In this document: positions 494 through 9,875 of the stretch, in pieces | Position numbering within the stretch: position 1 is the first letter of the stretch | How the letters are laid out: each line of letters starts with the position of its first letter | NCBI GenBank assembly: GCA_964609495.1 | Contig: CAZSTA010000119.1 | Location: forward strand, 1-11,043 | DNA length: 11,043 nt | DNA from: an uncultured bacterium | GTDB lineage: Bacteria; CAZSTA01 | Direction of reading: 5' to 3' | Notes under the pieces: generated by a model | The model's input: the letters and a program-made list of their open reading frames with translations, nothing else | The model's database searches: none | What the model was told of the DNA's origin: nothing | Program-made: the position numbers and the translations under genes

Positions 494-529
494 CACCCTC
501 CCCTAGCCCCTCCCGTCAAGGGAGGGGGA
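494..529 (-). repeat. G/C-rich palindromic REP-like repeat unit, copy A (inverted relative to copies B and C)
   Basis: Contains a perfect 8-bp stem CCCCTCCC-gtcaa-GGGAGGGG, preceded by CACCCTCCCCTAGCC, which is a degenerate reverse complement of the GGCYAGGGTGAGGGG tail of copies B and C. It is strongly G/C-rich against AT-rich flanks. Confidence 0.65.
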
Positions 530-554
530 ACTGAAGAGATCGAGCTTATCTCGT

Positions 555-596
555 GTTCCCTCTCCCCTCATGGGAGAGGGCCAGGGTGAGGGGGAG
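555..596 (+). repeat. G/C-rich palindromic REP-like repeat unit, copy B
   Basis: GTTCCCTCTCCCCTCATGGGAGAGGGCCAGGGTGAGGGGGAG: a 9-bp hairpin (CCCTCTCCC / GGGAGAGGG) plus a GGCCAGGGTGAGGGGG tail. About 39 of 42 positions are identical to the copy at 7214-7255. Confidence 0.8.
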
Positions 597-722
597 AATC
601 ATATTCCTCAGTACAAAGTTTTACATGCTTCGTTTCCGAATAGATTCTAGAGATATATAATTCTTCTAGGTTGTAATATTAGAGAGTTTAACTATAAATA
701 TAAGTAAGGAGTTCGTAATAAT

Positions 723-751
723 TTGACAAATAATCCCAATTAGGCTATAAT
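723..751 (+). promoter_or_regulatory. Consensus sigma70-type promoter (-35 TTGACA 723-728, 17-bp spacer, -10 TATAAT 746-751), predicted TSS about 758
   Basis: Exact match to both hexamers at the optimal 17-bp spacing, with an A/T-rich UP-like tract upstream (640-720). It is correctly oriented and positioned about 70 nt upstream of the first gene of the plus-strand operon. Confidence 0.7.
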
Positions 752-823
752 CTACATAGGAGATTAACAATTTTAACCTAATAACGAAATGAGAGTATCT
801 AGCTCATTACCTCGGACAGGGAG

Positions 824-1612
824 GTGGTTCGAATTATCCTTTCTTACTCCAAGATAAACACTTACTCTAAATGCCCTTTCAAATTTAGATTATCATACAT
901 AGATAAGATACCCTCCTCTCCTAAACCTTATCACAAGTTGGGGAATATTCTCCATAGCGCTCTTAGAAGCTATTATGAGTATAGATTAAGCTCGATCGGT
1001 AATCAGTCCCCTAGCTTAGATTATATGCTAGAGGAGTATAGGGAGAGTTGGGGAGATATAAGAGAAGGGGATGAGAAGCATTACCAGAAAGGCTTGGATA
1101 TCCTTACCGAATATTACTACAAGAACGTTGATTCCGAAGCGGTCCCTTATTACATAGAACAACCTTTCAATATAGTCGTAGCAGGAGTGAATATCATAGG
1201 TAGCTTCGATAGAGTGGATAAGCTGGAAGGATATGAACAGTATGAGATCATAGATTATAAGAGTAGCAAGACTATGCTGACTCAGGAGGAGATAGATGAG
1301 GATATCCAACTCAGTATATATTACCTCGCCTTTCAAAGGATGACAGGAATATCTCCAGTTAAGCTAAACTTCTATTATCTTCGTCAGAATCAGGTACTCA
1401 GCACTTATAGAACTGATGACGAGATCAACGAGCTAGTGGAGGTGATTAGAGAGACGGTTTGGGGGATCTCCTATCGCCGTTTTGAACCCTGCGAGGGCGA
1501 GATGTGTCGTTACTGCGATTATAAGCAATATTGTCCCTTAAAGGCAGAGGACCCGCTCCCTGTAGAGGATACAGAAAGCAGGATTAAACAATTGGAATTT
1601 GGATATTATTAG
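824..1612 (+). CDS. PD-(D/E)XK nuclease superfamily protein, Cas4/AddB-nuclease-like, with a 4-Cys (putative 4Fe-4S) signature
   Basis: The N-terminus LSYSKINTYSKCPFKFRL fits the Cas4/DUF83 consensus (S.S.i..Y..CP.kf.L). Motif II is GSFDRVD, motif III is EIIDYKS, and the QhxxY motif is QLSIYYLA. The C-terminus carries C-x4-C-x2-C-x5-C (CEGEMCRYCDYKQYC), which with the N-terminal Cys gives the 1+3 Cys Fe-S arrangement of Cas4/AddB. The start is GTG at 824; an in-frame TAG lies at 800-802 and there is no in-frame ATG before residue 68. The SD spacing is poor. Confidence 0.72.
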   Translation: MVRIILSYSKINTYSKCPFKFRLSYIDKIPSSPKPYHKLGNILHSALRSYYEYRLSSIGNQSPSLDYMLEEYRESWGDIREGDEKHYQKGLDILTEYYYKNVDSEAVPYYIEQPFNIVVAGVNIIGSFDRVDKLEGYEQYEIIDYKSSKTMLTQEEIDEDIQLSIYYLAFQRMTGISPVKLNFYYLRQNQVLSTYRTDDEINELVEVIRETVWGISYRRFEPCEGEMCRYCDYKQYCPLKAEDPLPVEDTESRIKQLEFGYY

Positions 1613-1633
1613 ATCAAGAGAGATAAATTAGAG

Positions 1634-2107
1634 ATGTTACAGAAATATCATATAAAGTGTATTCTCTTGCTATCTTTATTCTCCATATTATTGACGACTT
1701 TAGGATGCCCTTCCCCTCAAATCAGAGCTGGTATTAGTTTCAGGTTAGTTGAGGCTAAGACCTGCCAAGATTTAAAGGACACTTTCCCCGCGACTCCTAT
1801 AGGAGAGACCGATACTTTTCTAACCACTGATGAGCAGGTAGTTATATGGCTAAAGTTTGAGAATATAGATAAGCCTCATATCCTAAGATGGAAGTGGTAT
1901 TCTCCTAATGGTGAGTTATACTATGATAGCGGCGATTTCATCACTAATGCCGAGGGAGGTTTTCATAAAATTAATTACTCCTGGATGCCAATTCTAATCG
2001 CTGGAGATAAAGCCTCTTCTTTGCCTGGCGAATGGAAAGTTCTAGTCTTCTTGGATGGGAATCTTAAAGTAACTAGAACCTTTAAGATCGTAGAGAATAA
2101 AATATAA
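1634..2107 (+). CDS. Predicted lipoprotein of unknown function
   Basis: N-terminal signal peptide with a lipobox-like LLTTLG-C (MLQKYHIKCILLLSLFSILLTTLGC). The ORF is 157 aa, in the same orientation and tightly spaced within the operon, with no recognisable catalytic motifs. Confidence 0.55.
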   Translation: MLQKYHIKCILLLSLFSILLTTLGCPSPQIRAGISFRLVEAKTCQDLKDTFPATPIGETDTFLTTDEQVVIWLKFENIDKPHILRWKWYSPNGELYYDSGDFITNAEGGFHKINYSWMPILIAGDKASSLPGEWKVLVFLDGNLKVTRTFKIVENKI

Positions 2108-2122
2108 TATCGAGGTTATTAG

Positions 2123-2632
2123 ATGAGTTCAATATTGTGGGCGCCTTGGCGTATCGATTATATCCTGAGCGATAAACATAATGGTTGTCTCTTCTGTGAT
2201 AAATCTAAGGAGGACAATGATGAGGATAATCTAATCCTGCTCAGGAAGGATACCTGTTTAGTTATGATGAATCGTTATCCTTATAATAACGGTCATCTCC
2301 TTGTCGCTCCTTATCATCATATACCCAGTATAGAGGGACTGACTGTAGAGGAAATGACGGAGTTAATGGTAACGATTAAGGAGTGTATAGAATTGCTAAG
2401 AAGGGTTATGAGCCCTGAGGGATTCAATATCGGAATGAATATCGGGAAGGTGGCCGGAGCAGGGATAGCTGGTCACTGCCATTTTCATATAGTTCCCAGA
2501 TGGAATGGTGATACCAACTTTATGCCGGTTTTAGCTGATGCAAGGGTTATGCCGGAGTATCTTAGAGCGACCTATAAGAAATTGAAAGAGGGGTTATCTT
2601 TTGGCACAGGTGAGAAGCGAACAGGAGGATAG
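2123..2632 (+). CDS. HIT-family protein (Ap4A phosphorylase / nucleotidyl-transferase branch)
   Basis: Histidine-triad motif HCHFHIVPR, and an upstream CLFC..(N)RYPYNNGHLLVAPYHH core typical of the Ap4A-phosphorylase-like HIT subgroup. A GAGGT SD lies 6 nt before the ATG at 2123. Confidence 0.8.
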   Translation: MSSILWAPWRIDYILSDKHNGCLFCDKSKEDNDEDNLILLRKDTCLVMMNRYPYNNGHLLVAPYHHIPSIEGLTVEEMTELMVTIKECIELLRRVMSPEGFNIGMNIGKVAGAGIAGHCHFHIVPRWNGDTNFMPVLADARVMPEYLRATYKKLKEGLSFGTGEKRTGG

Positions 2633-4766
2633 GATATTAAGAGAGCTTAATCCTACTCAAAGAGAAGCGGTAACTTTTGAGCAGGGACCACTATTGATCT
2701 TGGCCGGAGCTGGTAGCGGTAAAACGAGGGTATTAGTTCATCGTCTAGCTTACCTTATTAAATACAGGGGAATTTCCCCCTGGAATATATTAGCTGTTAC
2801 CTTCACCAATAAAGCCGCTGATGAGATGAAGCAGAGGGCGGAGAGATTGCTAGGATATAGCGTCCAAAATCTTTGGGTGAGGACCTTCCACTCCGCATGT
2901 GTGCGAATTCTACGCTATGAGGCGGAGAGGATCGGCTTTCCGCGAGACTTCGCTATCTACGATGCTTCCGACCAATTGACTTTGATTAGAGAATGCCTTA
3001 GAGAGCTAAATTATGATGAGAAGCGATTCTATCCGCGTGCTGTCCTCTCCTATATAAGCCAAGCTAAGAGCGAGTTATTTGGTGTTCAGGAGTTCACCGA
3101 GGCTAAATCGGATAATTTCTTCGAGGGAATCGTAGCTAAGGTTTATGCTCTCTATCAGGATAAATTATGGCAAAGTTCGGCGATGGATTTCGACGATCTG
3201 ATTATGATGACAGTTAAGCTCTGGCGAGATAATCCAGATGTTTTAGATTACTATCAGGAGAAGTTCAGATATATCTTGATAGATGAGTATCAGGATACCA
3301 ATCATGCTCAATATGTATTAGTGAAGCTTTTGGCGGAGAAATATAGGAATCTATGTGTAGTTGGCGATCCAGACCAGAGCATATATGCCTTTCGCGGGGC
3401 AGATATACGCAATATCCTCGATTTCGAGAAGGATTATCCCGAGGCGAAGGTGATCAGGCTCGAACAAAATTATCGTTCCACTAAAAATATCTTAGCGGCG
3501 GCTAGTGAAGTGGTTAAAAATAATATCAATAGGAAAGAGAAAACCTTGTGGACTGAAAATGAGGAGGGAGATCTCACCCTTTATGCTCAACTGAGCAATG
3601 GTATGGAGGAGGCTACTTTTATCTCCGAACAGATAGAGGATCTATATCTTAAAGGGGACAGGAGATATAACGACTTTGTGACCCTCTATCGAACGAATGC
3701 TCAATCCCGCACTTTCGAGGAGGTATTCTCCAGAAGAGGTCTTCCCTACCGAATAGTAGGTAGCCTTGGTTTCTACGAACGCAAGGAGATCAAGGATATA
3801 ATAGCTTATTTGAGGATAATCGCTAATACTTCCAATTCGGTGAGCTTAAAGAGGATAATTAATGTTCCCTCTCGTCATATTGGAGAAGTTACTATTCGGG
3901 GGTTGGAGGATTTCACTTCGAGACAGGGGAAGCCTTTATACGAGGCCCTTCGATATTTAGATGATATAGAAGAGATAAGACCTATGCAACGAAGAGCGTT
4001 GAAGAGATTTCGAGAGATGATCGAGGAATTTAGAAGATGCAAGGATACTCTTAATATAAATCAGTTGCTCTCTATGATCCTCGATAAGACTGGCTATATC
4101 TCTATGTTAGAGGAGGAGGGAACAGTTCAAGCTGAGACCAGAATCGAGAACTTGAAGGAGCTACTAACTGTTACTCAGGAGTTTGCCGCCGAATCGGAGG
4201 GAGATTTAGACTCATTCTTAGAAAGAGTCTCTTTAACCTCGAATGTGGAGAGGGTGCAGGGCGAAGAGTTAGAGGATGCTGTAACCTTGATGACTTTGCA
4301 CTGTGCTAAAGGGTTGGAGTTTCCAGTTGTTTTCATCACTGGTATGGAGGAGGGGTTATTCCCGCACTCTCGATCTTTGAGCAATGAGAACGAGTTGGAG
4401 GAAGAGAGAAGGTTGTGCTATGTGGGAATGACTAGGGCTAAGAAGAAGCTCTATCTTACCTCTGCCTTCCACCGCTTGAGCTTTGGAAACACGATATTCA
4501 ATGCCAAATCTCGCTTTCTCTCCGAGATCCCTGAGCATCTCCTGGGAGATCTGTTAGCTCAAGGTGAGGAAACTACAGAAGATGAGGAAGAATTTTCAGG
4601 GATAATATATAAGGCGGGGGATAAGGTTAGACATCCCTCCTGGGGGATAGGGACGATCGTCAGTCGATCTGGATATGGAGATAATGCGGAGGTCAAGGTT
4701 ATCTTCTCCCAGGGAAATTTAAAGAGATTATTGCTCAAATATGCTCCTTTAGAAAAAGTCGATTAG
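2601..4766 (+). CDS. pcrA: ATP-dependent DNA helicase PcrA/UvrD (superfamily 1A)
   Basis: N-terminal LNPTQREAV ... GPLLILAGAGSGKTRVL (motifs Q and I), DEYQDTN (motif II), and the full set of UvrD/PcrA motifs through LYVGMTRAKKKLYLT (motif VI). The C-terminal GDKVRHPSWGIGTIV Tudor-like tail is characteristic of PcrA/UvrD. The likely start is TTG 2601 (GAGGGG SD at 2588-2593); the alternative is GTG 2610. The start overlaps the HIT gene stop (2630-2632). Confidence 0.9.
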   Translation: MAQVRSEQEDRILRELNPTQREAVTFEQGPLLILAGAGSGKTRVLVHRLAYLIKYRGISPWNILAVTFTNKAADEMKQRAERLLGYSVQNLWVRTFHSACVRILRYEAERIGFPRDFAIYDASDQLTLIRECLRELNYDEKRFYPRAVLSYISQAKSELFGVQEFTEAKSDNFFEGIVAKVYALYQDKLWQSSAMDFDDLIMMTVKLWRDNPDVLDYYQEKFRYILIDEYQDTNHAQYVLVKLLAEKYRNLCVVGDPDQSIYAFRGADIRNILDFEKDYPEAKVIRLEQNYRSTKNILAAASEVVKNNINRKEKTLWTENEEGDLTLYAQLSNGMEEATFISEQIEDLYLKGDRRYNDFVTLYRTNAQSRTFEEVFSRRGLPYRIVGSLGFYERKEIKDIIAYLRIIANTSNSVSLKRIINVPSRHIGEVTIRGLEDFTSRQGKPLYEALRYLDDIEEIRPMQRRALKRFREMIEEFRRCKDTLNINQLLSMILDKTGYISMLEEEGTVQAETRIENLKELLTVTQEFAAESEGDLDSFLERVSLTSNVERVQGEELEDAVTLMTLHCAKGLEFPVVFITGMEEGLFPHSRSLSNENELEEERRLCYVGMTRAKKKLYLTSAFHRLSFGNTIFNAKSRFLSEIPEHLLGDLLAQGEETTEDEEEFSGIIYKAGDKVRHPSWGIGTIVSRSGYGDNAEVKVIFSQGNLKRLLLKYAPLEKVD

Positions 4767-4768
4767 CT

Positions 4769-7201
4769 ATGATCAATGATTTTGGAGGCAGTTCCTCCCT
4801 TGCTAGACGTTTCATAGGCGATATTTACAATATACTTGTTAATATCTCCGCTCCCGAGATAGAAGTTGCCTATCAGAGATGGAAGAGATCTAGTGAGAGG
4901 ATATATGGGAGTAAACTCGATGTTCTTCAAACCTTGAGTGAAGATTATATTCCCGATGAGAAGCCACTCGACTTCAGCTTTTTGCTCTTCGCTCTTCAAA
5001 CTTACTATGCGATCCTGCTCAAATTCATCGCGGTTGACATAGCCTCTCATATCTACAACGAGCCTTCTTTGAGTTATCATCATAATGATGATCACTCAAC
5101 TTGGACAGATGAGCTATTATCCCTGACCGATAGCGAATTGAGGGACGATCTGCTATCTCTGGAGGAAGAAGGTTTACTTAATCAGCTAGGCATAGTTCAA
5201 GATCCTGAAGAGCGACTATTCTCTTGGTATCTGAAGAATAATTACGGTAATGAGCTATGCGATAATTTGAGAGAGGTGATAGCAAAGCTCGGAGAGTATG
5301 AATTAGTCCCTTTAATAGATAATCCAAGGGATCTCTTAAAGGGATTATATCACGATCTTTTTCCTCGCTCTATCCGTCATAAGCTAGGAGAATATTATAC
5401 CCCCGATTGGCTAGCCGAATTAGCTCTGAACGAATTGGAGTATGATGGCGATCCTCATAAACGAATATTAGACCCAGCGGCGGGATCGGGGACGTTTGTA
5501 ATTGCCTCTATTCTGAGAGCGAAGGATTACGCCGAGAGAGAAGGGATAGCTCAAGAGGAAGCTCTAAATCTCATATTAGAAAATATAGTCTGTTTCGATC
5601 TCAATCCTCTAGCAGTATTGATGAGTCGAGTAAATTATCTTCTCGCTTTAGGGCGAGAATTATTTTTATTAGGGAGAAAAATTGAAATACCGGTTTATCT
5701 ATGTGATCCCATATTATCTTCTCACTTTAAGAGAGAAGCTAATTCCTTCGCCGAAGTTGACTCCGAGTCATTCGATTACATAGCAGGAAATCCTCCCTGG
5801 GTGAATTGGGAAGATCTCCCCGATGATTACAAGAGATCGACCAAAGAGATATGGGATAAATATGGTATATTCTCTCATAGCGGACTTAGGGCTAGATTAG
5901 GAGGCTCTAAAGATGATATAGCGATACTTATGACCTATGTAGCGATAGAGCGTTATTTGAAGAGGAAGGGAAAACTTGGCTTCGTAATAACTCGCTCCTT
6001 ATTTAAGACGAAAGGTGGAGGAGAAGGATTCAGAAAGTTCAAGATAACGGATAAAACCCCCATAAGAGTTATTAAGGTGGATGATTTGAGCGAGCTTAAA
6101 CCTTTCGAGGGGGCAAATAACAGGGTCGCTCTGTTTATATGTAGCAAGGGAGAAGCCACTCGATATCCCGTCCCCTATACTTTATGGAGGAGAAGAGATG
6201 GGATATCTATAGATCCTTCATATTCTCTCGAAGAAGTTATCGGACTAACGGATAGAGTGAAACTTGAAGCAAAACCGGTGGATGATTATACTTCACCTTG
6301 GATCACAACTAAGAGTAGTTTTTTTGATCTATTAGAGAGGATGGGAGGAAAGACCGAATATAGAGCTAGAGAAGGGGTAAATACTGGGGGAGCGAATGGG
6401 GTATATTGGATCGAGATCGTGGATGGAGATGATCGATTACTCGTAGAAAATCTCGATCATATAGGGAGGAAGAAGATCCAGAAGTATCGAGATAGGGTAG
6501 AGAAAGATCTTGTCTATCCCCTTCTCCGAGGAAGGAATATCTCTCGCTGGAGGTCGAGTTATTCCTGTTATATAATTATCCCTTGTGATCCTGACGAACC
6601 AAAATTAAGGTTCGCTTCCGCTGAGATGAGCCTGAGATTTCCCAGGACTTACTCGTATCTTTCCCACTTTAAAGATATATTGCTATCGAGAAAATCTAGC
6701 TCTATCCCGAAAAATCCCTTCTATTCTCTTTTCGGGCTTGGTCCCTATACTTTCTCTCCCTATAAGGTTGTTTGGAGGGCTTTATACAAGGAGATTGCAG
6801 CGGTAGTAGTATCAAAGAGGGAGGATCGATTTCTATCTGCCAGATATATTATCCCCGAGCATAATGTTATGTTCATCCCTCTTTGGAATGAGGATGAAGC
6901 CCATTATCTCTGTGCGATATTGAACTCATCCTTAGTTAATTTTGCTATGCGGAGTTATGCCCCTCTGTTCTATTCGACTCACCTCCTCTCCTATCTAAGG
7001 ATACCTAAATATGATCCTGAACTTCGTCTTCATCGAGAGTTATCCTCTCTTTCCTCGAAAGCTCACCTCAACTCCGAGGAAGACGATGAGTTAAGGCATA
7101 TACAAGAGGAATTAGATCTTGTGATATGTAAGCTGTGGAATGTGAAAAAGGGAGAGTTATCCGAAGTTAAGGAGTATCTAAAAGAAATGGTGATTAACTA
7201 G
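4769..7201 (+). CDS. Large (810 aa) gamma-class N6-adenine DNA methyltransferase, Eco57I/MmeI/PglX-like core, with an N-terminal ~200-aa domain of unknown function and a C-terminal putative target-recognition region
   Basis: LGEYYTPDWLAELAL (motif X-like), ILDPAAGSGTFVIA (motif I, SAM binding), and AGNPPWVNWEDL (motif IV NPPW), in the X-I-IV order of gamma-class amino-MTases. About 390 aa follow the catalytic core. The ATG at 4769 sits 2 nt after the pcrA stop, so translation is coupled and there is no separate SD. Confidence 0.8.
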   Translation: MINDFGGSSSLARRFIGDIYNILVNISAPEIEVAYQRWKRSSERIYGSKLDVLQTLSEDYIPDEKPLDFSFLLFALQTYYAILLKFIAVDIASHIYNEPSLSYHHNDDHSTWTDELLSLTDSELRDDLLSLEEEGLLNQLGIVQDPEERLFSWYLKNNYGNELCDNLREVIAKLGEYELVPLIDNPRDLLKGLYHDLFPRSIRHKLGEYYTPDWLAELALNELEYDGDPHKRILDPAAGSGTFVIASILRAKDYAEREGIAQEEALNLILENIVCFDLNPLAVLMSRVNYLLALGRELFLLGRKIEIPVYLCDPILSSHFKREANSFAEVDSESFDYIAGNPPWVNWEDLPDDYKRSTKEIWDKYGIFSHSGLRARLGGSKDDIAILMTYVAIERYLKRKGKLGFVITRSLFKTKGGGEGFRKFKITDKTPIRVIKVDDLSELKPFEGANNRVALFICSKGEATRYPVPYTLWRRRDGISIDPSYSLEEVIGLTDRVKLEAKPVDDYTSPWITTKSSFFDLLERMGGKTEYRAREGVNTGGANGVYWIEIVDGDDRLLVENLDHIGRKKIQKYRDRVEKDLVYPLLRGRNISRWRSSYSCYIIIPCDPDEPKLRFASAEMSLRFPRTYSYLSHFKDILLSRKSSSIPKNPFYSLFGLGPYTFSPYKVVWRALYKEIAAVVVSKREDRFLSARYIIPEHNVMFIPLWNEDEAHYLCAILNSSLVNFAMRSYAPLFYSTHLLSYLRIPKYDPELRLHRELSSLSSKAHLNSEEDDELRHIQEELDLVICKLWNVKKGELSEVKEYLKEMVIN

Positions 7202-7213
7202 TTCTATCTCAAT

Positions 7214-7255
7214 GTTCCCTCTCCCCTTGTGGGAGAGGGCTAGGGTGAGGGGGAA
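7214..7255 (+). repeat. G/C-rich palindromic REP-like repeat unit, copy C
   Basis: GTTCCCTCTCCCCTTGTGGGAGAGGGCTAGGGTGAGGGGGAA differs at only ~3 positions from copy B (555-596) and has the same orientation. Its GAGGGGGA end doubles as the SD for ruvX. Confidence 0.8.
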
Positions 7256-7262
7256 AGCTAAA

Positions 7263-7688
7263 ATGAGAATTATGGGATTAGATTTTGGAGAGAAGAGAAT
7301 AGGAGTGGCGATAAGCGACCCCTCGGGTCTTATTGCCCAAGGGATCGACGTCATCCAACGGAAAGCCCCCGAAAGGGATATTTCGAGATTAAGAGAGATC
7401 ATAGATGGCTATGGAGTGGAGAAGATAGTAATAGGGATGCCAAGGAATATGAACGGAACTTTAGGGAGAAAAGCGGAAGAGGTTCAGGAGTTTATGGAGC
7501 TATTAAAGGACGAATTCGATATTCCTCTAATGACGTGGGATGAGAGACTATCCACTCATCAAGCGGAAAGAGTATTGATCGAGGCTGATATGAGCAGAGC
7601 TAAGAGGAAGAAGGTTATTGATAGAATGGCCGCGGTAGTGATACTGCAAAGCTATTTGGATAGTAGATCAGCTCGAAGCGATCACTAG
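7263..7688 (+). CDS. ruvX: Holliday-junction resolvase-like putative pre-16S rRNA nuclease RuvX/YqgF
   Basis: MRIMGLDFGEKRIGVAISD... is the canonical RuvX/YqgF N-terminus (GLDxGxKRIGVAxSD) in a ~140-aa RNase-H-fold protein. The ATG at 7263 is 8 nt downstream of GAGGGGGA. The longer ORF from 7212 merely reads through the repeat. Confidence 0.88.
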   Translation: MRIMGLDFGEKRIGVAISDPSGLIAQGIDVIQRKAPERDISRLREIIDGYGVEKIVIGMPRNMNGTLGRKAEEVQEFMELLKDEFDIPLMTWDERLSTHQAERVLIEADMSRAKRKKVIDRMAAVVILQSYLDSRSARSDH

Positions 7689-7754: not shown

Positions 7755-8561
7755 TTATCCTCCTCCTGATAATGCTCCTTTAACTCTTTCTGCTACTATC
7801 CTCGCGATCTCATCCTCACTCACTTCTTGAGACTTCTCCCCCGCGGCAGAATCGCTTATCGCACAAACCTCCCCTCCACATAGTCCGCAGGTCTCACAAC
7901 TAAAATTCGGTCCCTCTATACCTAATTCCTCTCTGATCTCCATAAGCCTGTCCACTTGCTCCTTAGTGAGCGTCCTCACTCCTCCTAGCTGTTTGGCTAC
8001 CAAGCTTATATGAGCGAAATGTTCTAAAGTCTCCATTCGATAGTAGGCTTTATAAACATCGGTCCCGATCGTCATCGCTCCATGATTAGCTAGCAGAAAA
8101 GCATCGGATTTCTTAATATATTCCATAATGGTATCAGGTAGCTCCTCGGTAGAGGGAGTTCCATAAGGGGCTAAGGGGACCGAACCTATAGTTATGACTA
8201 CTTCTGGCAACACACATTGAGCTAGGGGAAGTCCAGCTACCGCGAAACCAGTAGCGATCGGGGGATGAGCATGCACTACCGACTTAATATCCGGTCTAGT
8301 CTTATATACTCGAATGTGAAGTTTTACCTCTGAGGACGGTCTTCGATCTTCTGCTCCCGCAATTTTATTACCATCCATATCAACTTTTACTATATCCCCG
8401 ACCTCCAAGTAGCCCTTGGACATTCCCGTGGGAGTAGTCAATATCTCATTCTCGCTTATCCTGATACTCACATTTCCATCATTAGAGGCCACATAACCCT
8501 TTCCGTATATCCTATGGCACACCTCTACAATATCTTCTTTCAAAACCCATTCATTCGCCAT
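7755..8561 (-). CDS. Class II aldolase/adducin-family protein (L-fuculose/rhamnulose-phosphate-aldolase-like) with a C-terminal Cys-cluster and an encapsulation-peptide-like helix
   Basis: GNVSIR, TPTG, PSSE (metal-ligand Glu), HAHP and ANHG motifs of the FucA/AraD class II aldolase fold occupy residues 1-215. A 53-aa extension follows, carrying C222-x2-C225-x2-C228-x4-C233 and the amphipathic helix DEIARIVAERVKGAL. A strong SD (AAGGAGAGG) precedes the ATG. Confidence 0.85.
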   Translation of the reverse strand: MANEWVLKEDIVEVCHRIYGKGYVASNDGNVSIRISENEILTTPTGMSKGYLEVGDIVKVDMDGNKIAGAEDRRPSSEVKLHIRVYKTRPDIKSVVHAHPPIATGFAVAGLPLAQCVLPEVVITIGSVPLAPYGTPSTEELPDTIMEYIKKSDAFLLANHGAMTIGTDVYKAYYRMETLEHFAHISLVAKQLGGVRTLTKEQVDRLMEIREELGIEGPNFSCETCGLCGGEVCAISDSAAGEKSQEVSEDEIARIVAERVKGALSGGG

Positions 8562-8636
8562 ATTACCTCTCCTTTTATTCTAGCTGGAAAGTTGAAATCG
8601 AAAAGAGAGAAATTCCGCTCCTTCACTTTCCACCCT

Positions 8637-8927
8637 CTATTTTCTAAATACGTATTCTCCGTCAACTTCCCAATAATCTATGATTCCCATAATCAAAGTC
8701 CGAATAGGAGCCCTTTCTAAACCGAAAACTTCCCTAGCAACTCCGGGACCGCTTCCAGCTAAAACTATATCTCCCTCACCTGCTCCCACATAGTCAACTG
8801 CCACCATCGGAGACCCTTTTGGATTTCCCTCTATATCGAGCGGTTGAACGATCATTATCTTCTTATTCTGATAAGCCTCATGTTTAAGGGTTGATACTAT
8901 ATTTCCCACTACTTTGCCGATGAACAA
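8637..8927 (-). CDS. BMC vertex (pentamer) protein, EutN/PduN/CcmL family (BMC-P), paralog 1
   Basis: MFIGKVVGNIVSTLKH...IMIVQPLDIEGNPKGSPMVAVDYVGAGEGDIVLAGSGPGVAR...MGIIDYWEVDGEYVFRK follows the EutN/CcmL consensus (ViGxvvaT, D.vGAG.G..VL...GS.AR, GIvD) and is ~96 aa. It apparently uses a TTG start. Confidence 0.85.
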   Translation of the reverse strand: MFIGKVVGNIVSTLKHEAYQNKKIMIVQPLDIEGNPKGSPMVAVDYVGAGEGDIVLAGSGPGVAREVFGLERAPIRTLIMGIIDYWEVDGEYVFRK

Positions 8928-8968
8928 AGGAGCTCACTTCCCTATTTATAAAAACTTCAAATCAGTAA

Positions 8969-9265
8969 TTACTGTTTCCCACTTTCAACTTCTGAATCGA
9001 TACTATGAACAGAATCTACTATACCAACTATCGCGGCATCTACTGGAGTGAAAACATCATCGAAAGCCTGAGTAGCATCACGACTAGTAACAAAGAACAC
9101 AGTATCACCGTATCCAGCTAGAGCTACCGCATCGGCAGCGATCAAAGGCCTGCCTGATTTTTCTAGGTTTTGATCCAGGGGCTGAACGATCAACAGGCGA
9201 AATCCCTTTAAGCTCTCCTGTTTTCTAGTTGCTACTATTGTCCCAATTACCTTTCCTAACTTCAT
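8969..9265 (-). CDS. BMC vertex (pentamer) protein, EutN/PduN/CcmL family (BMC-P), paralog 2
   Basis: MKLGKVIGTIVATRKQESLKGFRLLIVQPLD...AADAVALAGYGDTVFFVTSRDATQ...PVDAAIVGIVDSV has the same fold signature and is 98 aa. An SD (AGAGGA) precedes the ATG. Confidence 0.82.
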   Translation of the reverse strand: MKLGKVIGTIVATRKQESLKGFRLLIVQPLDQNLEKSGRPLIAADAVALAGYGDTVFFVTSRDATQAFDDVFTPVDAAIVGIVDSVHSIDSEVESGKQ

Positions 9266-9320
9266 ACCCTATCCTCTTTTAGAAAAAAGATAAACCATTT
9301 TCCAATTTATGCTTTCCCGA

Positions 9321-9875
9321 TCACAATACTTTCGCGATTAAGCTCGGATTTGGAGAAGGGATAACAACGCTATCTAAAATCATTCCCCTATCAGTGATCT
9401 CTGATACGCCAGCCTGGATTCCAGCTCTAACATCAGCTACAGTTCCAGTTAAAACTAGGAAGGATTTGCCACCTAAACCTTTCGCTAACCTGATCTCGAT
9501 CAGAGATACATTAGCCGCTTTTGCGGCTGCGTCACCGGCTATTATAGTTGAGGCTACCGAGAAGGTCTCTATTATCCCCAAAGCCTCGACCTCCTCGATG
9601 ATAGTCGTTCCCACGATCGCGGGGAAGATCTGAGGATGAACATTAGGGATTATCAGATCATCCACAACCGTTTCTGCTCCTACCCTCTGCCCTGTCCTAA
9701 CGGAGGTCTCTACTGCGGCTATCTCTCCCCCTATTAGAACAATGTATTTACCAGGACAGACCGGAGCCGCCTCTATCAGATCAACTGTAGCCGCATCCAG
9801 CATCTCATCACAAGCCATCATTCCCCTAGCTATGCTATTGAATTCTACAAGTCCAATCGCTGAATGTATTGCCAT
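9321..9875 (-). CDS. pduT: Tandem-BMC-domain shell protein, PduT-like (BMC-T with putative Fe-S-binding cysteine)
   Basis: At 184 aa it is the same length as PduT. It carries two BMC (pfam00936-like) repeats, AIGLVEFNSIARGM...VDLI and ALGIIETFSVASTIIAGDAAAKAANVSLIEI...GGKSF. The PduT pore cysteine context (ICPGK) is conserved as PVCPGK, and there is a C-terminal SVVIPSP as in PduT. Confidence 0.82.
   Translation of the reverse strand: MAIHSAIGLVEFNSIARGMMACDEMLDAATVDLIEAAPVCPGKYIVLIGGEIAAVETSVRTGQRVGAETVVDDLIIPNVHPQIFPAIVGTTIIEEVEALGIIETFSVASTIIAGDAAAKAANVSLIEIRLAKGLGGKSFLVLTGTVADVRAGIQAGVSEITDRGMILDSVVIPSPNPSLIAKVL

Follow-up and report, generated by a model that had tools for sequence, protein, structure and literature searches.

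We analyzed an 11,043-nt stretch of DNA from an uncultured bacterium (the complete contig CAZSTA010000119.1 of assembly GCA_964609495.1, the whole stretch here referred to as the window) and focused on three copies, designated A, B and C, of a short G/C-rich repeat, which we compare with the BoxC/PIT/TMECO family of intrastrand triplex motifs. Copies A and B lie in the intergenic region between alr and a nuclease gene, and copy C lies in that between a methyltransferase gene and ruvX. Five co-directional genes, encoding a PD-(D/E)XK nuclease, a hypothetical protein, a HIT protein, PcrA/UvrD and an Eco57I-like methyltransferase, are followed by copy C and ruvX. An earlier note on this DNA had placed B just after the alr terminator and C just after the methyltransferase stop codon, with a promoter and the five-gene operon between them, and this layout was confirmed. 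The features concerned are as follows.

Copy A, 496-527, minus strand: subtype 2 triplex motif, inverted beside B
Blocks of A, minus strand: pyrimidine block 527-520, CCCCTCCC; loop 519-515, TTGAC; purine block 514-507, GGGAGGGG; loop 506-504, CTA; mirror block 503-496, GGGGAGGG
Copy B, 547-596, plus strand: TMECO/BoxC type, core 558-592
Blocks of the B core: pyrimidine block 558-566, CCCTCTCCC; loop 567-571; purine block 572-580, GGGAGAGGG; loop 581-583, CCA; third block 584-592, GGGTGAGGG
Copy C, 7205-7255, plus strand: TMECO/BoxC type, core 7217-7251
Blocks of the C core: pyrimidine block 7217-7225; loop 7226-7230; purine block 7231-7239; loop 7240-7242, CTA; third block 7243-7251
Imperfect palindrome, 440-640, no strand: about 200 nt with A and B in its arms; outer arms 440-470 and 610-640, 31 nt, 74% complementary
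62-nt module, 7202-7263, plus strand: encloses copy C entirely; flanked by the methyltransferase stop codon TAG and by TGAGAATTATGGG; boundary ambiguous by 1 nt
C-terminus of alr, 9-374: upstream of A and B
Intrinsic terminator of alr, 407-432 (407-442 in all), plus strand: 9-bp stem and then TTTTAATTTC; upstream of A and B
Consensus sigma-70-type promoter, 723-751, plus strand: TTGACA-17-TATAAT, 12 of 12 bases; for the nuclease-to-methyltransferase genes; downstream of B
Eco57I/type IIG-like methyltransferase gene, 4769-7201, plus strand: stop codon 7199-7201; variable segment among relatives
Spurious N-terminal extension of ruvX, 7212-7262, plus strand: runs through copy C (MFPLPLWERARVRGKAK); NCBI start codon ATG 7212

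Structure of the three copies

Copies B and C had been described as near-identical 42-bp sequences in the same orientation, each made of a hairpin and a tail. A repeat finder recovered B (554-595) and C (7213-7254) as a direct repeat with 39 of 42 positions identical (93%), and a local alignment of 547-596 with 7205-7255 carried the similarity further in the 5' direction (45 of 50 columns identical, one gap). Each copy has a perfect 9-bp hairpin, CCCTCTCCC/GGGAGAGGG, with a 5-nt loop, followed by CCA in B or CTA in C and then by GGGTGAGGGGG. Beyond the core, both copies have TATCTC..TGTT on the 5' side and GGGA on the 3' side. The diagnostic 21-mer pattern GGGAGAGGGYYRGGGTGAGGG matched the window at the B and C sites only and had 0 matches in 200 dinucleotide-preserving shuffles. 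By sequence, B and C also contain four G3 tracts, G3-AGA-G3-CCA/CTA-G3-TGA-G3(+), and thus the canonical G-quadruplex motif of four tracts of at least three G with loops of 1-7 nt. The G+C content of the copies is 64-72%, compared with 42% for the window, so that they are indeed far richer in G and C than their surroundings.

Copy A had been regarded as a diverged, inverted copy of the same sequence. It is inverted, but it is an exact match to the pattern CCCCTCCC-N3-6-GGGAGGGG-N3-GGGGAGGG, for which the chance expectation is 0, and its sequence is better described as a member of a different and widespread subtype than as a decayed or diverged copy of B and C. A generic finder of the class II purine-motif triplex, which asks for a pyrimidine block, a purine block and a mirror-image third block with T allowed for A, recovered A, B and C with 0 mismatches and nothing else in the window. 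When folded with ViennaRNA as isolated single-stranded DNA (ssDNA), each copy forms the proximal hairpin (8 bp in A) and leaves its third block unpaired; this program cannot represent triplexes. Covariance models of Rfam, searched over the whole window with E ≤ 1, gave no match at A, B or C.

Copy A (minus strand, subtype 2) and copy B (plus strand, subtype 1) are 30 nt apart and form an inverted pair of unlike subtypes. Together they make up the arms of the imperfect palindrome at 440-640, which the earlier note had missed and whose centre is GAGAT..ATCTC near position 540. As ssDNA, this region folds with a minimum free energy (MFE) of -40.5 kcal/mol (z = -5.9), and none of 200 shuffles was equally stable. 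When the A/B composite was searched in plasmid and phage records, the full composite was not found and the repeat cores alone matched, so the composite appears to be specific to this locus.

Copy C lies 15 nt past the methyltransferase stop codon and ends 8-11 nt before the ATG of ruvX, and its Shine-Dalgarno-like GAGGGGG ends 9 nt before that ATG. An open reading frame (ORF) at 7212-7688 reads through the copy and encodes MFPLPLWERARVRGKAKM..., and the NCBI gene call is this 158-aa version (P0361), an instance of the spurious ORF extensions that had been anticipated. The Pfam match to RuvX begins at residue 18 of the 158-aa ORF, which corresponds to ATG 7263. Since both this match and the relatives point there, the true start of ruvX is likely ATG 7263, with a product of 141 aa. 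A terminator scan of both strands found the alr terminator at 407-432 and no candidate at A, B or C, and none of the copies is directly followed on its 3' side by the T-run of an intrinsic terminator. Moreover, a Pfam scan of ten ORFs in the window found no transposase domain.

Family membership, spread and the mirror rule

The TMECO pattern is 5'-CCCTCNCCC N3-6 GGGNGAGGG N3 GGGNGAGGG-3' (Holder et al. 2015, PMC4666352), and the same paper equates TMECO with two earlier names, the Escherichia coli BoxC repeat (Bachellier, 1990s) and the "PIT element" (Hoyne and Maher, 2000/2002). Copies B (558-592) and C (7217-7251) fit this pattern exactly; A does not, and fits that of subtype 2. BLAST of 7205-7262 against 5,426 complete E. 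coli genomes found 84,065 places in 5,374 genomes at 80-95% identity, with a median of 17 per genome, almost all of them chromosomal; among the matches listed, 0 of 10 had an annotated feature over them. Because copy C aligns directly to E. coli copies, the membership of B and C goes beyond a coincidence of pattern. With good confidence, we regard A, B and C as copies of this G/C-rich intrastrand triplex motif family that most likely have no dedicated function here. Known since the 1990s, the family was characterized between 2000 and 2015; what is new is its occurrence in an unstudied, non-proteobacterial lineage.

Much of what is known of these elements comes from E. coli (all in PMC4666352). 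The isolated TMECO strand, studied as E. coli oligonucleotides, forms a very stable intrastrand triplex by circular dichroism (CD) and nuclear magnetic resonance, and the elements block DNA polymerase in vitro. They have neither promoter nor terminator activity (citing Hoyne & Maher 2002), no functional class was found among their neighbour genes, and no association with transposons, phages or plasmids was seen. Rearrangements are more frequent at TMECO loci than in control intergenic regions, and most often it is the element itself that is deleted or mutated. Inverted pairing of elements was also described. The elements were reported from 262 proteobacterial genomes, and no mechanism of propagation is given.

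The copies in the window share with these elements the exact pattern (B and C), 80-95% identity to the E. coli copies, the intergenic position and the mirror third block, as well as an inverted pair of two subtypes (A/B) and a locus that is unstable among relatives. They differ in the second loop, which is CCA or CTA here and TTA or CCG in E. coli, in the partner A, whose 8-nt stems have another sequence, and in the local density, which is unusually high with 3 copies in 11 kb. The host also differs, TMECO having been reported from Proteobacteria, as the uncultured bacterium has Bacillota- or Chloroflexota-like proteins. The best named matches of PcrA (55% to Thermincola) and RuvX (64% to Desulforamulus) are both Bacillota, and the Alr C-terminal domain is 70-81% identical to proteins of metagenome-assembled genomes (MAGs) labelled Anaerolineae or Ktedonobacteria (Chloroflexota), several of them annotated as Alr-MurF fusions. 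These host signals conflict, but the lineage is not Proteobacteria.

We further examined the spread of the family with a 31-base pattern, TTCCCTCTCCNCTNNNGGGAGAGGGNNAGGGTGAGGGG, drawn from B, C and the copy of a relative (L003) and deliberately narrow. It was found in at least 116 stretches of species-representative genomes from some 15 phyla, at loci of 35-72% G+C. The phyla include Pseudomonadota, Desulfobacterota, Nitrospirota, Planctomycetota, Bacillota, Actinomycetota, Atribacterota, Elusimicrobiota and Verrucomicrobiota. The records include Enterobacter, Leclercia, Kluyvera, Pseudomonas, Dyella, Azospirillum, Sphingomonas and Rickettsiales; many others are from Desulfobacterota and Myxococcota, and further ones from Nitrospirota, Nitrospinota, Entotheonella, Caldithrix, Auribacterota, Gastranaerophilales, Elusimicrobia, Planctomycetota, Rokubacteria, Binatia, Atribacteria, Verrucomicrobiota and Actinomycetota. 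Bacillota are represented by one Clostridia MAG and two Syntrophomonadaceae MAGs. Several matches lie on chromosome-scale contigs or on contigs longer than 50 kb. The general TMECO-type pattern occurs in at least 120 stretches of viral contigs; plasmid matches are mostly from Azospirillum and Sinorhizobium megaplasmids, and phage records have almost none. To judge from these matches, the exact TMECO-type sequence occurs in about 15 phyla, compared with Proteobacteria alone in PMC4666352, which would go beyond the published description and needs phylogeny-aware and experimental confirmation.

The stems are invariant across copies, and the loops and flanks vary; in 140 viral and 159 genomic copies, no flank position was conserved apart from the bases set by the search pattern. 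Family copies lie inside long ORFs in 21% of cases, against 78% of random sites. Eight of them lie between divergent genes and 23 between convergent genes, and singletons between co-directional genes have a modest bias toward the sense strand (41 vs 22). Pairs within 150 nt are mostly inverted (40, against 7 direct), and minus-plus pairs like A/B are among them; one locus (L155) has a minus-plus pair with the same combination of subtype 2 and subtype 1. A minus-plus pair of triplex motifs, head-to-head like A/B, was also seen in E. coli strain 1190 (L412, 388-497). It is located between flgK and a rod-binding protein gene of a second flagellar cluster, and in many other E. coli genomes this intergenic region is matched by two separate BLAST pieces.

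On one strand, members of the family consist of a pyrimidine block, its purine complement, with which it forms the hairpin, and a second purine block that mirrors the first. In a purine-motif triplex the third strand runs antiparallel to the purine strand, and the third block must therefore be a mirror image; an alternative Watson-Crick hairpin needs a direct copy instead, and a G-quadruplex is indifferent. Subtype 2, the pattern of A, is informative because its purine block is asymmetric. In the viral-contig collection, its mirror form was found in 106 stretches and the direct-copy control in 0; for subtype 3 (CCCTCCCCC/GGGGGAGGG/GGGAGGGGG), the counts in viral contigs were 60 and 0. Among asymmetric hairpins in general, a mirror block follows 175 times (58 types) and a direct one 53 times (19 types), as counted over maximal homopyrimidine/homopurine stems in 1.9 Mb of loci that were ascertained via the self-mirror subtype only, and most of the 53 direct cases are register-ambiguous extensions or derivatives of subtype 1. 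Moreover, there are mirror-type members without four G3 tracts, such as GGAGAAGG/GGATGAGG and AAGAGGGG/GGGGAGAT. The mirror counts are as a triplex model predicts and are not predicted by models of a G-quadruplex only or of a hairpin switch. They favour the triplex over the G-quadruplex reading, which goes beyond the papers cited here and likewise calls for phylogeny-aware and experimental confirmation.

Variation of the locus among relatives

The close relatives of this locus are short metagenome contigs only. The 62-nt module is present in the window and in three relatives (L003, L004 and L411) and absent in another, L002, whose RuvX is 94% identical to that of the window. In L002, ...GAGATGGTGATTAAGTAG joins TGAGAATTATGGG directly. 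Its upstream ORF ends with ...GAG ATG GTG ATT AAG TAG, and the window has ...GAA ATG GTG ATT AAC TAG followed by the 62 nt. The indel was read by eye from the two sequences, and in this direct reading no target-site duplication flanks it. The ruvX of L002 has a GTG/ATG start and no repeat upstream.

A relative of about 95% identity from the sample of L002 (L241), the one short contig that a metagenome scan with the nuclease protein yielded, is collinear with window positions 1320-2800 at 97% mean column identity, and the order nuclease-hypothetical-HIT-pcrA is conserved in it. The contigs L003, L004 and L411, which come from three samples, encode a RuvX 85% identical to that of the window. They contain the 3' end of pcrA, gatTAGctATG, GGAGAACTGTA, an orthologous copy of C and the same ...CTAAAATGAGAA junction to ruvX, and they are without the 2.4-kb methyltransferase gene (455-520 in L003). 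The right breakpoint of this second indel is within about 15 nt of copy C.

By parsimony, copy C would be ancestral before ruvX and cleanly lost in the lineage of L002, and the methyltransferase gene appears as an indel abutting copy C. The earlier note had suggested that B and C mark the boundary of an insertion or rearrangement, and had proposed a comparison of this locus in relatives. Indels do coincide with the repeats in L002 and in L003, L004 and L411, but the 6.6-kb interval from B to C is not the unit that varies. As these contigs read, B and C do not delimit one mobile unit, because L241 keeps the genes from nuclease to pcrA and because L003, L004 and L411 are without the methyltransferase gene only. 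The indels agree with the pattern of rearrangement and deletion described for TMECO (Holder 2015, PMC4666352). The nearest homologues of the Alr C-terminal domain (74-81% identity) are found in other gene neighbourhoods with no synteny to the window, and no triplex motif was found at their loci.

Interpretation of the repeats and observations on neighbouring genes

REPs (repetitive extragenic palindromes) have two arms, differ from species to species, carry a conserved 5' tetranucleotide and are associated with a gene for a REP-associated tyrosine transposase (RAYT). The copies in the window had been likened to REPs, to the related BIMEs or to miniature inverted-repeat transposable elements (MITEs), and this holds in the broad sense of a dispersed, intergenic, G/C-rich palindromic family. 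Like REPs and BIMEs, they are short and multi-copy, frequently occur as inverted pairs, show enrichment downstream of genes, and give rise to spurious ORFs and rearrangements. The likeness does not hold in the strict sense, as the flanks are unconserved, neither terminal inverted repeats nor target-site duplications were seen, and the family is known in the literature under names of its own. The unit here has three blocks and is nearly identical across phyla. Neither a transposase among the ten window ORFs scanned with Pfam nor a conserved flank tetranucleotide in the 140 viral and 159 genomic copies was found, and we know of no RAYT link for the triplex-motif element. With MITEs such as ERIC/IRU, Correia and RUP, the elements share the form of a small non-autonomous module with presence/absence polymorphism, and the A/B composite of about 200 nt has inverted ends. 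In contrast to MITEs, the conserved core is only about 35 nt and has no terminal inverted repeats, target-site duplications are not seen family-wide nor at the 62-nt indel, and the composite, with 74% complementary ends, is unique to this locus, its cores alone matching elsewhere.

Two other descriptions are relevant. The HPGQ motif of Kaplan/Doluca (10.1101/032615) comprises identical E. coli DNA sequences, read as G3N3G3N3G3N3G3 with a conserved 5' C-rich region and often found as opposite-strand pairs; it was interpreted as a switch between G-quadruplex and hairpin, whereas the counts of mirror and direct blocks obtained here point to the triplex architecture as the conserved constraint. 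Similar repeats in archaea and Deinococcus, a recurrent putative quadruplex sequence with a C-rich site (PMC8044849), also have a repeated G-rich motif beside a partly complementary C-rich block, and their CD spectra indicate a three-strand fold. In these, the C-rich site is at the other edge and the sequences are different, and the likeness is one of description only.

In the explanation that we prefer, the element is a short non-coding repeat that measures about 35 nt, or about 50-62 nt if the flanks shared locally are included, and is scattered in the intergenic DNA of many bacteria. When the DNA becomes single-stranded during replication, repair or transcription, the hairpin would form, and the third block would lie antiparallel in its major groove to give G.G-C and A/T.A-T reverse-Hoogsteen triads. 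Such transient folding of ssDNA could cause stalling, slippage or breakage, and hence local deletions and the neighbouring gene-sized indel, the outcome being loss, gain or rearrangement of the element and the adjoining DNA. We infer that triplexes form in vivo and that they cause the indels; the family identity, mirror rule, intergenic bias, inverted pairing and polymorphisms are matters of observation. Most likely, the elements serve no dedicated function here, and their visible effects are incidental. These effects comprise a 200-nt palindrome between the alr terminator and the next promoter, the presence or absence of 62 nt before ruvX, a gene-sized indel abutting C, and, for ruvX, a replaced start codon and ribosome-binding region (a new ATG and the GAGGGGG) with a mis-called ORF.

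Several points weigh against this explanation. The copies known in the source organism are only three, all within 11 kb. L002 gives only 49 nt upstream of ruvX, and its upstream gene was identified by the ...EMVI(N/K)-stop ending that it shares with the window. The tie between the repeat and the methyltransferase indel, so far as it can be read from the contigs, is positional and not evidently causal. The mirror tallies are of copies and not of independent events, and the copies could descend from a few founder sequences. In addition, Holder 2015 (PMC4666352) detected no triplex signal when the DNA was double-stranded, and dimethyl sulphate footprints showed no protection in vivo.

One alternative is an RNA-level role. 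The hairpins would act as stabilizers of 3' ends, as the earlier note had suggested, or as terminators, and C as a translational switch of ruvX in which GAGGGGG is free when the C-rich arm pairs with block 2 and sequestered when that arm pairs with block 3. Copy C does lie within a probable transcript and close to both the stop codon and the ruvX start, in the RNA fold of MFE at 7205-7270 (-26.2 kcal/mol, z = -2.3) it is the distal G block that pairs with the C-rich arm, and the sense-strand bias of singletons between co-directional genes points in the same direction. However, A and B lie between a terminator and a promoter and are therefore probably not transcribed, so that 3' stabilization does not suit B; the copies have no T-run after them, the terminator scan is empty at the repeats, no Rfam family matches, and the E. 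coli elements have neither activity. An alternative-hairpin switch also needs a direct third block, and direct forms number 0 against 106 and 0 against 60. That C supplies the Shine-Dalgarno sequence of ruvX is plausible by spacing, but this is not required, because the ruvX of L002 exists without the repeat altogether. We therefore consider an RNA-level role unlikely. A switch between G-quadruplex, hairpin and duplex, in which the conserved G3-N3-G3-N3-G3-N3-G3 folds as a G-quadruplex, competes with the hairpin and regulates neighbours ("HPGQ"), can draw on the perfect motifs of B and C, on the recovery of the same E. coli sequences by a G-quadruplex predictor (10.1101/032615) and on related archaeal repeats that shift in vitro between the three-strand fold and a G-quadruplex with K+ (PMC8044849). 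We find it quite improbable, as the potential for a G-quadruplex is equal for mirror and direct third blocks, yet only mirror ones were found (106:0 and 60:0). It also leaves the conserved pyrimidine block unexplained and meets mirror-type members without four G3 tracts, and the E. coli neighbour genes have no functional class to be regulated (PMC4666352).

The remaining alternatives concern movement of DNA. That B and C are boundary direct repeats, produced or exploited when the 6.6-kb block was inserted or excised, is suggested by their 93% identity, common direction and position at its flanks, and a direct repeat of 42-50 nt could in principle support deletion. It is nevertheless highly improbable and largely refuted. 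No relative is without the block, L241 keeps nuclease-hypothetical-HIT-pcrA, and L003, L004 and L411 retain pcrA beside the repeat and ruvX with the methyltransferase gene alone missing; PcrA is a housekeeping-type helicase with its best named matches in Bacillota PcrA, and unrelated genomes contain thousands of copies of the same repeat, with flanks that are unrelated too. Mobilization by a transposase in the strict sense, either of a REP moved by a RAYT (IS200/IS605-type Y1 transposase) or of a MITE with terminal inverted repeats and target-site duplications, is in our view improbable too. In its favour, the element forms a discrete module: in the comparison with L002, the 62-nt indel has clean ends and takes in all of the locally shared unit. 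The A/B composite also has inverted ends of 31 nt, and the near-identical sequence in many phyla and in viral and plasmid records implies horizontal spread. On the other side stand the lack of a transposase gene among the ten scanned ORFs, of conserved flanks or a REP-type 5' tetranucleotide across the family, of a target-site duplication at the 62-nt indel and of a second 200-bp composite in the plasmid/phage search, as well as the observation of Holder 2015 that transposons, phages and plasmids are not associated (PMC4666352). The clean module and the spread across phyla keep some form of active mobilization possible.

A bolder extension of the triplex explanation, to which we give rather little credence, is that of a pan-bacterial, horizontally spreading module whose sole conserved property is the succession of pyrimidine, purine and mirror purine blocks ("triple covariation") and which is copied or retained by a mechanism that reads the ssDNA triplex. 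It can draw on the presence of the element in viral and plasmid records and, among genomes, in about 15 phyla over a G+C range of 35-72%. If it were true, stems could differ and still keep both Watson-Crick and reverse-Hoogsteen compatibility, the reader of the triplex would be an unknown enzyme or a replication template-switch, and the presence or absence of the 62 nt with C would be one such excision or insertion event.

For annotation, the repeats explain the mis-annotated start of ruvX (the 158-aa call through C) and peptide-like spurious ORFs, and they probably also account for part of the contig breaks and indels that related metagenome assemblies show. They are not to be taken as the ends of a mobile defence island. 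The window is a further data point for BoxC/TMECO far beyond Proteobacteria with its sequence almost unchanged, and the mirror rule for the third block is a cheap test from sequence only that favours the triplex over a G-quadruplex or a plain hairpin.

Some other observations on the genes around the repeats were made. The promoter at 723-751 lies in a spacer of 27% G+C upstream of the nuclease gene and is unusually strong for a housekeeping-looking operon. The pcrA operon (824-4766) is unusual in its composition, with a Cas4-like PD-(D/E)XK nuclease, a 157-aa protein that has no Pfam or PADLOC match, and a HIT-family protein, and the end of the HIT ORF shares 32 nt (2601-2632) with the TTG start called for pcrA. 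For the methyltransferase product of 810 aa, the alignment to type IIG restriction-methylase models covers only their C-terminal ~500 positions; judged by this, the protein may be an orphan or truncated methylase without a nuclease domain. Positions 4786-4806 (GGAGGCAGTTCCTCCCTTGC) at the 5' end of its gene have a weak likeness to the 5' half of copy C, and 3861-3886 (AATGTTCCCTCTCGTCATATTGGAGA) in pcrA also resemble the 5' half of the repeat. The former might be the microhomology behind the methyltransferase deletion of L003, and both coding stretches may be chance likenesses. Inside pcrA, 4375-4463 gave a sub-threshold Rfam match to n00280 (44.5 bits, against a gathering score of 65.2), a small RNA of Clostridioides difficile annotated within a helicase gene; the match most likely reflects conserved helicase codons and not an RNA gene. 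Just downstream of ruvX, the minus strand at 7755-9875 encodes a class II aldolase, an EutN/CcmL-type protein and a tandem-BMC shell protein, which are part of a microcompartment cluster that is kept in relatives (L001 and L002).

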